Of a stretch of DNA of 36,163 nucleotides, positions 1 through 36,163 are shown piece after piece. The number at the start of each line of letters is the position of its first letter. The first letter of the stretch is position 1. A program made the translations under genes and the position numbers. Under the pieces are notes generated by a model. It was not told the origin of the DNA. It did not search any database and saw nothing but the letters and a program-made list of their open reading frames with translations. The stretch comes from Bacteroidota bacterium (GTDB taxonomy: Bacteria; Bacteroidota; Bacteroidia; Flavobacteriales_F; PHOS-HE28): positions 1 through 36,163 of the forward strand of contig JAEYYE010000391.1 of the NCBI GenBank assembly GCA_023430945.1, in the 5' to 3' direction.

Positions 1-781
1 AGAATGCGCGCCCTTGGGCCTGATGGTCCACCAGCCGCGAGTGTTCCTCGTTCATGATCATATCCTTCATGCGCGTGTTCGCTTCGATCGCCCAATCATG
101 TCCGCCGTAGGGATCGCGCCAGTTGATCATCCCGAGGTTGTGTACGATGTTGCCGCTACCGATGATGAGCACGCCCTTTTTGCGCAGTGCCGAAAGTTCG
201 CGCGCAAGATCGTAATGCTGCTGCGGTGAGAGATTCCGATCAAGGCTCAACTGCACCACAGGAACATCGGCCTTGGGAAAGAGATGTATGATCACACTCC
301 AGGCGCCATGATCCAATCCCCATTGATGATCGACCCCGATATGCCGGCTGGTGACAAATTCTTGCGTATCGCTCGCCAGCGAAGGACTGCCCGGCGCTGG
401 ATATTGCACGGCGAAAAGTTCGTCCGGAAATCCACCGAAGTCGTGGATCGTGCGAGGCTTTTCCATGCCGGTGACGAACGTGCCTTTTGTTTCCCAATGC
501 GCACTGATGCATAGGATCGCATTCGGTTTTGGCAGGTTGCTACCGATCTCCCTCCAGCCTCGCGAGAATTCATTGTCCTCGATCGCGTTCATCGGACTTC
601 CATGGCCCAGGAACAATACCGGCATGGCGGGTGTGGTGCCGAAATTCGAGGCTGCCATGCCGAGCTCGCGCAAGCCGATCGCTGCGCCAAGCGGGGCAAG
701 GCCGATCAATTGCAGTGCTTTGCGCCGGTCCATCGCTTCGTTGGTTTCGTTCACGCTGCAAAGATACCAAATATTTTCCAT
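1..781 (-). CDS. 4,5-DOPA dioxygenase extradiol (YgiD / class III extradiol dioxygenase family); 3' end runs off the left edge
   Basis: Not in the ORF track because it has no stop in the window. My own reverse-strand translation from the ATG at 781-779 is uninterrupted to nt 1. It reads MENIWYLCSVNETNEAMDRRKALQLIGLAPLGAAIG...PVLFLGHGSPMNAIEDNEFSRGW...ILCISAHWETKGTFVTGMEKPRTIHDFGGFPDELFAVQYPAPGSP...HQWGLDHGAWSV...IIGSGNIVHNL, typical of YgiD-type dioxygenases. An alternative start at Met17 (nt 733) gives a twin-arginine-like leader. Confidence 0.75.
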   Translation of the reverse strand, partial: MENIWYLCSVNETNEAMDRRKALQLIGLAPLGAAIGLRELGMAASNFGTTPAMPVLFLGHGSPMNAIEDNEFSRGWREIGSNLPKPNAILCISAHWETKGTFVTGMEKPRTIHDFGGFPDELFAVQYPAPGSPSLASDTQEFVTSRHIGVDHQWGLDHGAWSVIIHLFPKADVPVVQLSLDRNLSPQQHYDLARELSALRKKGVLIIGSGNIVHNLGMINWRDPYGGHDWAIEANTRMKDMIMNEEHSRLVDHQAQGRAF

Positions 782-1075
782 GGAAAATAATGATGGATAG
801 GATGGGGCTACCGTCCTTGAAGGGGAGGTCCGATCAACCGGTCGCAACATTAATTTTGTACGCATGCCACGGTTGGCCCCGATCGTTACACCCGCACGCC
901 GCAGCAGCGGCCGACCCTTCCGATGATGGATCGGGCGAAGCACCAATGCGCTTGCGGAGCGGTGAGCGGCACGCCCACACCGATCGGATCTTTCCCAGTG
1001 AACATCTTCTTGCATCGATCCCTGCGGATCGGCATTATTCCGTACAACCCGCAACCTGCACGCCGTAAAGGCTGA

Positions 1076-2473
1076 ATGAAGACTCGGTACATCGATCTGA
1101 TCGAACAGACCTTCGACTTTCCGAAGGACGAATTCAAGCTGAACGAGGATAATCTCGAATGGAACGATCTGCCGCTGATGGAGATCCTCCAGAAACATGG
1201 CACGCCGCTGCGGATCACCTACCTGCCAAAGATCGGCGAGAAGATCGAGATCGCGCGTGAGAGTTTCAGGAAAGCATTCGAGACGCACCAGTACAGTGGC
1301 GATTACAAGTATTTCTATTGCACAAAGAGCAACCACTTCAGCTACGTGATAGACAAGGTGTTGCTCAAGGGCGTGGACCTTGAGACCAGCAGCGCGTACG
1401 ATCTGGACATGATCGAAGTGCTGATAGGTCAGGGCCGCATCACGAAGGAAAGCCAGATCCTGTGCAACGGTTTCAAGGACGAGCGCTACATCCAGAAGAT
1501 CGGATCGCTGTTGAACCGCGGTTTCCAAGTGATCCCGATCATCGACAACATGGCCGAGATCTACCAGTTGGATGAAGTGATCGAAGGCACGTGCGACATC
1601 GGGATACGCATCGCCGCGGAAGAAGCACCGAAGTTCGAATTCTACACCAGCCGCCTGGGGATCGGTTACAAGGACATCATCCCGTTCTACATGCGCAACG
1701 TGAGCAAGCAGAAGAAATTCCGCCTGAAGCTCATGCACTTCTTCATCAACACGGGGATCACCGACACGGCATACTACTGGAACGAGCTGAGCAAGTGCGT
1801 GAACGTGTATTGCGATCTGAAAAAGCTGTGCCCAACGCTGGACACTTTGGACATCGGTGGCGGCCTGCCGATCAAGAACAGTTTGAATTTCAGCTTCGAT
1901 GTGGACTACATGATCGGCGAGATCGTGGGCCGGATCAAGGACATCTGTGAGGAGAACCGCGTGCCCGAGCCGCACATCTGGAGCGAGTTCGGCAGCTTCA
2001 CAGTGAGCGACAGCGGAGCCACGTTCTTCAGCATCATGTACCAGAAGAAGCAGAACGAGAAAGAGCGCTGGAACATGATCGACGGCTCGTTCATGACCAC
2101 CCTGCCCGATACGTGGGCCATCAGCAAACGCTTCATCATGCTGCCGATCAACAACTGGGAGGATGAGTACGAGCGCGTGTTCCTGGGCGGCATGACGTGT
2201 GACAGCGACGACTACTACAACTCCGAGCAGCACATCAACGCGATCTACATGCCGCGCTTCCGCGAGGATCGCAAACAGTACATCGGCTACTTCAACACCG
2301 GCGCCTACCAGGATACGCTGGGCGGCTTCGGCGGCATACAACATTGCCTGATCCCAAAACCCAAGCACGTGCTGATCGACCGCGCGGAAGATGGTTCGCT
2401 GGTGGATCGGGTGTTCGCGCCCCAACAAAGCGCGGAAAGGATGCTGAAGTTGTTGGGTTATTTGGAGGAGTGA
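1076..2473 (+). CDS. speA: Arginine decarboxylase, short Bacteroidota type (fold-type III PLP-dependent Orn/DAP/Arg decarboxylase)
   Basis: 465-aa ORF with an N-terminus (MKTRYIDLIEQTFDFPKDEFKL...GTPLRITYLPKI) and length characteristic of flavobacterial arginine decarboxylases. It has TIM-barrel-type motifs (DIGGGLP) and a C-terminal GAYQDTLGG segment. Confidence 0.75.
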   Translation: MKTRYIDLIEQTFDFPKDEFKLNEDNLEWNDLPLMEILQKHGTPLRITYLPKIGEKIEIARESFRKAFETHQYSGDYKYFYCTKSNHFSYVIDKVLLKGVDLETSSAYDLDMIEVLIGQGRITKESQILCNGFKDERYIQKIGSLLNRGFQVIPIIDNMAEIYQLDEVIEGTCDIGIRIAAEEAPKFEFYTSRLGIGYKDIIPFYMRNVSKQKKFRLKLMHFFINTGITDTAYYWNELSKCVNVYCDLKKLCPTLDTLDIGGGLPIKNSLNFSFDVDYMIGEIVGRIKDICEENRVPEPHIWSEFGSFTVSDSGATFFSIMYQKKQNEKERWNMIDGSFMTTLPDTWAISKRFIMLPINNWEDEYERVFLGGMTCDSDDYYNSEQHINAIYMPRFREDRKQYIGYFNTGAYQDTLGGFGGIQHCLIPKPKHVLIDRAEDGSLVDRVFAPQQSAERMLKLLGYLEE

Positions 2474-35547: not shown

Positions 35548-35707
35548 GTTCTTTGTTCCTGCTTTAGGTTTCGTCTGGTTCGATCCGCTTCCACGAAACA
35601 ACGTGCCGCGTGCGTGAATGGTTGAACCTGTGCCAGTTAAATTATGTTGATCGACAATCACGATCCGTTCCAGATCGGAGAAGCGCGATCTTTGAACACG
35701 GCACATC

Positions 35708-36163
35708 ATGAAGATCGGATTTTCAAAGTGGCACGGTACCGGAAATGATTTCATCCTGATCGATGACAGGAAGTCAGTCTTTCCGATCGGGAATCAACTG
35801 ATCCAACGGATATGCGATCGGCATTTCGGGATCGGGTCCGATGGACTGATCTTGATCCAGGAGCCGAAAGAAAAGGGGATCGAATTCCACATGGAATTCA
35901 TCAATCCTGACGCAAGCCGCAGTTTTTGTGGAAATGGGAGCCGTTGTGCCTACGCTTTCTGGAGCGAGCTGATCGACGATCGTTCACCAGCGGCTTTCAC
36001 TGCGTTCGATGGCAAGCATGAAGCGGAATGGAGTGAAGGAAAGGTAGCGGTCACCCTGGCGCCAGTGGATCGGATCGAACGTGAAAGTGAAGGGCAGGAT
36101 CATGTGAATACCGGATCGCCGCATGAGCTGGTGTGGGTGGAAGATCCCGATCGGATCGATGTG
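35708..36163 (+). CDS. dapF: Diaminopimelate epimerase, 5' part (runs off the right edge)
   Basis: Not in the ORF track because it has no stop in the window. My own translation from the ATG at 35708 reads MKIGFSKWHGTGNDFILIDDR...DRHFGIGSDGLILI...MEFINPDASRSFCGNGSRC...NTGSPH, the canonical DapF motifs. Confidence 0.88.
   Translation, partial: MKIGFSKWHGTGNDFILIDDRKSVFPIGNQLIQRICDRHFGIGSDGLILIQEPKEKGIEFHMEFINPDASRSFCGNGSRCAYAFWSELIDDRSPAAFTAFDGKHEAEWSEGKVAVTLAPVDRIERESEGQDHVNTGSPHELVWVEDPDRIDV

Follow-up and report, generated by a model that had tools for sequence, protein, structure and literature searches.

Genomic context and GATC content of the window

The DNA analysed here, a 36,163-bp contig of a Bacteroidota bacterium (JAEYYE010000391.1, assembly GCA_023430945.1; hereafter the window), carries the tetranucleotide GATC in large excess, and this excess is the subject of the present work. 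The window has a GC content of 0.560, and Pfam scans identified ParA/ParB, RpoD, HtrA, NusB, YajC, CoaE, a DEAD-box helicase and two proteins with tail domains of the type IX secretion system (T9SS), an ordinary housekeeping set of a Bacteroidota chromosome. The host phylum proposed in a preliminary description made from the sequence alone agrees with the T9SS tails, with a DUF5683 domain and with the closest genomes, which are uncultured Flavobacteriales metagenome-assembled genomes (MAGs). The nearest is the sister genome L002 (JAEZDL01), with a ParB 96% identical and 89.5% nucleotide identity over 16.9 kb. The window corresponds to two joined ENA lake-metagenome scaffolds that overlap by 55 bp, with 6 mismatches to one of them and otherwise identical, and a contig from a second sample matches it with 3 mismatches; every one of the nine differences from the ENA contigs is a single substitution, and eight are transversions.

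GATC occurred 776 times, one site per 46.6 bp or 21.5 per kb, against 137.2 copies expected from base composition (observed/expected ratio, O/E, of 5.66), and 8.6% of all bases fell inside a site. One hundred dinucleotide-preserving shuffles yielded 288±15 copies (maximum 328), 2.7-fold fewer than observed. The maximal-order Markov expectation was 597.6 (ratio 1.30), an inflated null, since GATC sites account for 63% of the GAT and 66% of the ATC trinucleotides. Counts per kb ranged from 7 to 38 along the window and the O/E was at least 3.4 for every gene but one, the excess thus not being regional. Autocorrelation of site spacing revealed the 3-nt coding period and no helical, tandem or longer period within 36 kb, and periodic placement of the sites beyond 3 nt was rejected. 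A local effect of oriC or parAB was likewise ruled out, given that relatives lack the excess at the same locus and that density is uniform over the 36 kb. The several-fold excess announced in the preliminary description is thus real, and its hand tallies (13, 24, 12 and 8 GATC in the four stretches sampled; GATCG at 7 of the 13 sites within nt 1-600; five CGATCG in the first kb, at 85, 580, 676, 880 and 981, and none in 1001-2000) were exact on full count.

Non-coding DNA was affected to at least the same extent. In 18 hand-defined spacers (2,449 nt) we counted 56 GATC (22.9 per kb, O/E 6.1), one AATC and two GATT, and first-order Markov simulations of these spacers gave 17.1±4.1 GATC with a maximum of 33. 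With automatically defined non-coding DNA the O/E was 6.6 in the window, 4.7 in L002 and 2.0 in outgroups. An intergenic run reported near position 2550 was found as CGATCGATCG at 2541.

Codon choice and sequence context

Shuffling synonymous codons within each of the 30 coding sequences produced 393±11 GATC, against 636 observed (ratio 1.62, z=21), corresponding to 20.7 per kb of coding DNA. All three codon phases exceeded the shuffles, with 417 against 239 for xxG|ATC, 44 against 10.8 for xGA|TCx and 175 against 143 for GAT|C, and GATC in phases 2 and 1 gave the first and third strongest positive context effects of all tetramer-by-phase combinations. Four-fold degenerate codons preceding ATC ended in G in 79% of cases, compared with 40% overall, and arginine before TCN was encoded by CGA in 19 of 28 cases (68%), compared with 23 of 550 (4%) elsewhere. 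The GAT trinucleotide without a following C was only 1.28-fold enriched; therefore the tetramer drives the GAT and ATC excess and not the reverse, and a "GAW/WTC" trinucleotide preference as the true unit was rejected on these grounds. The claims that the excess extends to all codon phases and to intergenic DNA, and that protein sequence is an unlikely cause, were borne out, and codon usage likewise could not account for it. The dinucleotide and codon-aware ratios (2.7 and 1.62-1.69 for GATC, 3.9 and 2.19 for CGATCG) all lie above 1.5, the limit that the preliminary description had set for a genuine excess.

ATC makes up 88% of isoleucine and GAT 70% of aspartate codons in the window, and G-ending four-fold codons are common. 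Recoding the window proteins with uniform synonymous usage gave 5.8 GATC per kb, with outgroup codon usage 9.9 per kb (the actual outgroup value being 8.9), and with the window's own usage stripped of context 12.2 per kb. Since the latter two values, 9.9-12.2 per kb, compare with 20.7 observed, most of the excess is context-specific. The preliminary description had also suggested a context-dependent choice of aspartate codons, from the first 120 codons of a speA-like gene. Its counts were exact (GAT in three of four cases before C, GAC in four of six before other bases), but the suggestion does not hold within the genome, in which the share of GAT is equal whether C (0.79), G (0.81) or T (0.76) follows. 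It is relative to outgroups that the GAT share before C has moved most, from 0.22 to 0.79.

Restriction of the excess to one lineage

We compared the window with 80 syntenic loci from related species, projected onto its reading frames. The O/E of GATC was 1.3-3.6 in relatives with a GC content of 0.56-0.69, 3.57 in a locus with 84% ParB identity and 6.14 in L002. The codon-aware ratio reached 1.69 in the window and 1.76 in L002, whereas 34 outgroups had a median of 0.99 (range 0.74-1.36). ATC was preceded by C in 0.60 and by G in 0.37 of outgroup cases, the same as for other codons starting with A; the odds ratio for G before ATC was 6.3-8.2 in the focal clade and 0.5-3.5 elsewhere. Relative to outgroups the clade also shows a general shift in composition, with GC at third codon positions falling from 0.84 to 0.73, GAT rising from 0.32 to 0.72, GAA from 0.33 to 0.62 and isoleucine from 6.8% to 8.1%, and NCC giving way to NCG. 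These comparisons describe what is apparently a genome-wide, lineage-specific and recently evolved hyperabundance of GATC in a clade of about genus rank. Because close relatives form a gradient of ordinary, intermediate (JAEZCB01 and JAEYNT01, for example) and extreme levels, its cause is open to test. Literature searches retrieved no published report of GATC hyperabundance of this size, genomes themselves not having been surveyed broadly.

Gain and retention of sites

In the 16.9-kb alignment with L002, 328 GATC sites were shared, 59 were present only in the window and 78 only in L002. Among the 128 strand-symmetrised tetramers GATC was the most conserved, with a Jaccard index of 0.705 against a median of 0.475. 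At four-fold sites, G was kept before ATC in 122 of 132 cases, compared with 471 of 608 where the next codon did not start with A (p=3.5e-5). Retention of C was only 16 of 28 before ATC, the other 12 being G in L002, and 79% before other A-codons; in all, C and G had been interchanged before ATC at 20 of 158 sites. The words found in outgroups at the positions of window GATC sites were GACC (40%, phase 0), GATC (31%) and CATC (21%, both phase 2) and, less often, GGTG and GCTC. Changes from C to G, from C to T and from any base to A thus converge on one palindrome, at its outer as well as its inner positions, which points to a bias that recognises the finished site and makes a single mutational process unlikely.

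Methylases and nucleases in related genomes

Searches with tblastn used E. coli Dam, Dcm, Vsr and MutH (N-terminal 113 aa of MutH) as queries. Neither the window nor 1.39 Mb of syntenic sequence from relatives gave a match to Dam or MutH at E≤1e-3, and the window likewise held no homologue of Dcm or Vsr; SeqA was not queried. Directly downstream of parB in one relative (L063, positions 11149-13924) lie genes for a C5-cytosine methylase (11149-12237; PF00145, 8e-55), a BglII-family endonuclease and a LexA-like protein, which by their sequences form a predicted restriction-modification island with a LexA-like repressor. The methylase-endonuclease pair recurs at other loci of related MAGs (L170, L177 and L178), and the hosts of the pair show no avoidance of GATC or RGATCY.

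Among 80 metagenomic homologues of the L063 methylase, eight adjoin MutH/Sau3AI-like open reading frames (ORFs) and five adjoin Vsr genes, and the GATC density of the focal lineage was seen in none of the 80 loci. Many nuclease-linked loci contain no GATC at all, one of them along 13 kb. Low-GC contigs with methylase homologues (L125, L132, L133, L139 and L152) lack the word, one of them throughout 13.1 kb, with a MutH/Sau3AI-like ORF beside the methylase in L132 and L152. The site is avoided completely in such contigs, the exact opposite of what the focal lineage shows. Because the homologues pair with nucleases and their loci are often devoid of GATC, this Dcm-class family is very probably specific for a GATC-containing site. 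Protein searches found the methylase to be common in MAGs named "Flavobacteriales bacterium" and present in at least six related genomes; at least three of the compared relatives (JAGPDT01, CAYMXP01 and CAZJTB01) carry it in their assemblies, either alone or together with the BglII-like nuclease, and so does L167, a lineage with intermediate GATC (O/E 3.0). A second ParB-bearing contig of the MAG that also contributed locus L056 (L067, 21 kb) has its own ParB followed by fragmented C5 methylase matches in three frames (7401-8541), and is possibly a plasmid or an integrated element whose methylase has decayed.

A drive favouring GATC as the preferred explanation

The convergence of different source words, an effect no smaller in non-coding DNA and the superior retention of sites together point to a bias that recognises the site once complete, through weak selection or through a drive in repair or recombination. 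With moderate confidence, we favour a lineage-specific compositional drive that acts genome-wide on the DNA itself, in the form of a methylation-coupled drive or of weak selection, with GATC probably methylated. Point changes creating GATC would be preferentially fixed and changes destroying it preferentially lost, with a scaled strength S≈2 (from the natural logarithm of an odds ratio of 6-8), and the bias would act on the finished site instead of through one mutational pathway. Physically, it would most likely rest on methylation of GATC in this lineage, fixation being biased because the choice of strand during mismatch correction or recombination is coupled to methylation, i.e. a biased repair of the type considered by Elhai; alternatively within the same explanation, weak selection would favour dense methylation or binding sites, which sequence alone cannot separate from drive. 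We infer that the GAT and ATC codon preferences and the rise in isoleucine are downstream consequences of the drive. Circumstantial support for methylation comes from the family-wide Dcm-class methylase, from its nuclease-paired homologues and from the GATC methylation documented in other Bacteroidota (PMC5608340).

The single gene with a low O/E (1.97), encoding an AAA_14/DUF4143 ATPase, lies in a segment that does not align to L002, which fits a process imposed by the host over time. The two longest GATC-free gaps of the window (427 and 300 bp) both fall within this gene, which is foreign in composition and looks like a recent acquisition whose GATC content the host-level process has yet to remodel.

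A narrower and more tentative proposal is that methylation-coupled molecular drive multiplied the 4-bp palindrome until the whole genome had a site roughly every 47 bp. Biased correction or recombination might favour the strand with a methylatable GATC, or DNA uptake might prefer self DNA in a methylation-dependent manner. Uptake sequences (uptake signal sequences and DNA uptake sequences, USS/DUS, or RAATTY in Campylobacter) offer an analogy, being likewise short words brought to high copy by an uptake or recombination bias without function of each site, and a self-mark spreading in this way is a possible model for GATC; they differ in that USS/DUS are 9-12 bp long and non-palindromic, and RAATTY is abundant only through an AT-rich genome.

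Several points weigh against the favoured drive. "Genome-wide" is an extrapolation from about 40 kb of distinct focal-lineage DNA at one locus, with 30 genes and 18 spacers from two genomes. The general compositional shift of the clade, which supplies about 2 of the approximately 11 extra GATC per kb, has no GATC-specific explanation. Compared with other A-codons, for which retention was 136 of 157 (87%), the retention of G before ATC (92%) was not significantly higher (p=0.13), and the polarisation of changes by outgroups, 29 gains to 2 losses of GATC, is discounted because GATC-poor outgroups bias parsimony towards gains. Searches of the window and the sister locus with tblastn detected no gene for a GATC methyltransferase, MutH, Vsr or a DpnII-type enzyme, and the contigs of ten methylase homologues that we examined all belonged to other lineages. 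Among the best 120 homologues, none was more than 76% identical to the L167 methylase, and the focal lineage may therefore lack the Dcm-class enzyme.

Direct selection on site density

Selection on site density without any drive, GATC serving as the site of a specific nucleoid protein, as a self-mark or as a strand-discrimination signal, appears to us unlikely, though it overlaps the favoured explanation and is inseparable by sequence from a biased-repair drive. It would account for the site-level pattern with S≈2, in which all neighbouring tetramers feed GATC and retention exceeds that of control words, and for a density uniform across genes and spacers. Proteins reading GATC have precedents in Gbn of Streptomyces and SeqA of enterobacteria (PMC9239103, PMC4786541), and similar evidence from conservation led Xu et al. 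to argue for selection on HIP1, a cyanobacterial palindrome (PMC5861425). However, single sites are only moderately conserved, 137 of 465 differing between two genomes with 10% divergence, no protein emerged as a candidate reader, and known GATC-dependent functions manage with at most one tenth of this density. The Dam/MutH/SeqA system of Gammaproteobacteria illustrates the last point: there the same tetramer is methylated and read by repair and replication proteins, but its frequency is near random (O/E 0.84 in a 50-kb E. coli control), and the window holds no dam or mutH homologue, seqA not having been searched for. Local GATC enrichment in Gammaproteobacteria is found only near oriC and in some genes. 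MutH and SeqA are not known from Bacteroidota.

Depletion of AATC and GATT and very short patch repair

Apart from CTAG, the most depleted tetramers of the window were AATC and GATT (Markov ratios 0.27 and 0.39), while an E. coli control showed no depletion (1.09). The near-elimination was seen at synonymous sites (A|ATC 2 observed against 78.6 expected; G|ATT 3 against G|ATC 417, as compared with C|ATT 36 against C|ATC 204) and in the spacers. Both words are the C-to-T deamination products of GATC, which raises a rather improbable alternative, very short patch (VSP) repair. Cytosine methylation of the Sau3AI type (GAT-m5C) would be accompanied by a Vsr-like enzyme or glycosylase that over-corrects T:G mismatches, turning GATT and AATC into GATC. 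In keeping with this, AATC or GATT is involved in only 3 of the 137 GATC sites that differ between the window and L002, and the Dcm-class methylase of likely GATC-containing specificity, common in the family, has distant homologues adjoining Vsr genes in five metagenomic loci.

The depletion is nevertheless equally strong in relatives with ordinary GATC (78 outgroup loci projected) and, being family-wide, cannot account for a surge confined to one lineage. New sites also came from CATC (a transversion), from GACC (an inner C-to-T change, the wrong direction for this repair) and from G[CGT]TC, while the five Vsr-linked loci themselves lack the depletion (O/E 1.3-1.8) and the focal lineage yielded neither Vsr nor methylase at the loci searched. 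A pure Vsr/VSP model of the surge was thus rejected on account of the family-wide depletion together with gains from CATC, GACC and GNTC, and Vsr-type repair may instead be a background process of the family. In E. coli, Dcm and Vsr skew composition so that CCWGG is raised and CTWGG and CCWAG are lowered. The window resembles that system in that a palindrome is enriched and its deamination products are depleted at the DNA level, and in the Vsr genes beside homologues of the methylase; it differs in that the depletion is shared with relatives lacking the surge, in drawing on neighbours that differ by a transversion or at an inner position, which lie beyond the reach of VSP repair, and in an effect far larger than in E. 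coli.

Avoidance of GANTC (HinfI/CcrM type) as a cause of the AATC/GATT depletion was rejected, GATTN and NAATC showing no preference for the GANTC context. The spaced word GA-N1-TC stood at 0.22-fold of expectation, an effect carried by GASTC (5 observed, 77 expected). Strong depletion was also found for CTAG (2 copies, O/E 0.01), TTAA (8 copies, 0.09) and runs of C5/G5 (0.10); that of GACTC/GAGTC and CTAG is family-wide in these Flavobacteriales. Restriction avoidance and repair are possibilities for CTAG, TTAA, GASTC and C5/G5. For GATC, restriction-site avoidance was discarded as acting in the opposite direction.

Codon usage or mutation bias as the source of the excess

That GATC simply follows from codon usage, from amino-acid composition or from a mutation bias dependent on context, the site as such not being recognised, seems very unlikely. 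The strong ATC and GAT preferences do bring codon usage alone to 12.2 per kb, high-GC relatives reach an O/E of 2-3.5 with no context effect, and the lineage has undergone shifts unrelated to GATC, for example in GAA, AAA and CTT. Yet a 1.6-1.7-fold excess persists after synonymous shuffling, the intergenic excess is equal or larger, rare codons such as CGA before TCN are recruited where they complete a site, and no single mutational mechanism predicts the three kinds of change that converge on the palindrome.

The enriched unit and comparison with HIP1

The preliminary description likened the pattern to HIP1 (highly iterated palindrome 1), which is the octamer GCGATCGC, on account of CGATCG and of octamers near 6040 and 6360; the latter were located at 6041 and 6352, along with 10 further copies. 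Short palindromes are normally avoided in bacterial genomes, and HIP1 is the one well-known exception. It co-occurs with methyltransferases for GATC (DmtA) and CGATCG (DmtC), and its chromosomal distribution in cyanobacteria is periodic at 10-90 kb, a scale to be set beside the 36 kb of the window.

An element of the HIP1 type, in which a longer palindrome (CGATCG or GCGATCGC) would be the true unit and GATC merely its core, is highly improbable here. CGATCG and GCGATCGC did exceed base composition (11.3- and 14.2-fold) and dinucleotide shuffles (3.9- and 4.3-fold), the latter because GATC itself does, and the octamer density of 332 per Mb falls at the low end of the cyanobacterial range. Given their sub-words, however, neither was enriched: CGATCG had 122 copies against 136.5 expected from its 5-mers (Markov ratio 0.89) and GCGATCGC 12 against 9.8 expected from its 7-mers (1.23), as was already the case for CGATC (328 copies, 1.10) and GATCG (323 copies, 1.03). 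C at -1 and/or G at +4 was present in 68% of GATC sites, no more than flank composition predicts; all 16 NGATCN contexts were populated, and CGATCG and the octamer accounted for only 16% and 1.5% of the sites. No 8-mer exceeded 18 copies, and hence there is no repeated element; GATCGATC, with only 6 copies, likewise indicates the absence of a repeat-unit structure. The enriched word is the bare tetramer GATC, and the enrichment of CGATCG and GCGATCGC is its downstream consequence. As hexamer and octamer add nothing beyond GATC and its flanks, the pattern is iterated-palindrome-like without being HIP1, and the motif itself does not bear out the analogy. Cyanobacteria rich in HIP1 have the octamer 55-228-fold over expectation at 300-2,700 per Mb (Elhai 2015; Xu et al. 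2018, PMC5861425), and in those of Groups A and B GATC itself is generally under-represented (Elhai 2015).

What the two phenomena share is a short GATC-containing palindrome far above expectation and variable among lineages, sites in all codon phases and in intergenic DNA beyond codon-aware expectation and better conserved between related genomes than control words, and a dependence on methylation that is suspected, not proven, with function unexplained. They differ in the length of the unit (8 bp there, 4 bp here, with no enrichment of hexamer or octamer beyond sub-words), in density (21,500 per Mb here against 300-2,700, i.e. 8-70-fold higher), in fold excess (5.7-fold here against 15-300-fold, as a tetramer must), in bare GATC (5.66-fold here, under-represented in HIP1 genomes) and in host (Bacteroidota here, cyanobacteria there).

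Although the window joins two scaffolds across a 55-bp overlap and its differing positions are mostly transversions, an artefact of assembly, of library construction (DpnII or Sau3AI Hi-C junctions) or of chimeric binning has a negligible chance of being correct, because the same sequence and density recur in assemblies made independently from three samples as well as in another NCBI MAG (90% identity), the Hi-C junction GATCGATC is rare and the sites lie within intact conserved genes.

Individual features of the window

The coordinates of individual features are collected in Table 1. The densest gene, that of CoaE, shows how far coding sequence has been remodelled, and the ATPase gene serves as an internal control.

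Table 1 Positions of GATC-related and other features in the window.
Feature	Position	Strand	Details
GATC sites, dispersed	1..36163	none	n=776, full count
Antisense open frame	2..2479	minus	826 codons
CGATCGATCG	2541..2550	none	two overlapping CGATCG, intergenic
Segment not aligning to L002	2685..4704
DUF5615 (PIN-like)/DUF433 pair	2725..3284	minus	toxin-antitoxin pair
AAA_14/DUF4143 ATPase	3420..4613	plus	8 GATC, 6.7 per kb, O/E 1.97, GC 0.62; internal control
GCGATCGC octamer (HIP1 sequence)	6041..6048	none	one of 12; other starts 6310, 6352, 6685, 10744, 11452, 11911, 16526, 18784, 24659, 26564, 34781
Spacer upstream of parA	9863..10073	none	6 GATC in 211 nt
Glu/Leu/Phe/Val-dehydrogenase-like gene	15153..16256		in-frame TAG at 15837-15839
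CoaE (dephospho-CoA kinase)	18085..18669	plus	25 GATC, 42.7 per kb, O/E 11.3; densest gene
Two large T9SS proteins	25121..31385		~976 and ~1,059 aa
Spacer	28052..28205	none	6 GATC in 154 nt
Spacer	31386..31536	none	6 GATC in 151 nt
GAPDH-like ORF	31537..33000	minus	487 aa

The segment with the ATPase gene also carries the toxin-antitoxin pair. The two large proteins are neighbours, each with a T9SS C-terminal sorting domain and no further Pfam domain above the gathering score, apart from one marginal sub-threshold match to vRNAP_dom (E 1e-4); their GATC density is somewhat lower, at 18.1 and 14.8 per kb. The dehydrogenase-like gene is interrupted by the in-frame stop, at which an otherwise identical ENA scaffold reads TCG, giving an intact product of 367 aa. 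In the GAPDH-like ORF the Gp_dh_N domain begins at residue 137, and the protein has either a long N-terminal extension or a true start about 130 codons further downstream.

The antisense frame spans the whole speA-like gene and joins a real LigB-like gene at the left end of the window. Long "shadow" ORFs of this kind are common here because TAA, TAG, TTA and CTA are so rare, and naive ORF calling would predict too many genes. The left end is also covered by a 3.5-kb ENA scaffold; with the HtrA gene of the right end as query, no overlapping sequence that would extend the contig was found.

Significance of GATC hyperabundance

A pressure at the DNA level has strongly reshaped coding sequence in this lineage, in which codons depend on context, rare codons are recruited, the aspartate preference has been switched and isoleucine has been raised. 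In practical terms, the extreme tetranucleotide signature is of use for binning, and enzymes recognising GATC cut such genomes into very small pieces in Hi-C and library protocols. Should methylation-coupled drive be the cause, with both strands methylated at every site, about 10% of adenines or 8% of cytosines would be methylated.

HIP1 has defied explanation for 30 years, in part owing to its great age and its near-universal occurrence among cyanobacteria. The same behaviour is met here for the minimal word GATC, in another phylum and as a recent change. If the methylation-coupled drive is correct, this would be the first HIP-like phenomenon outside cyanobacteria, simpler and recently evolved, with sister lineages that lack it, and a comparison of gene gain and loss among them could identify the machinery behind iterated palindromes in general.

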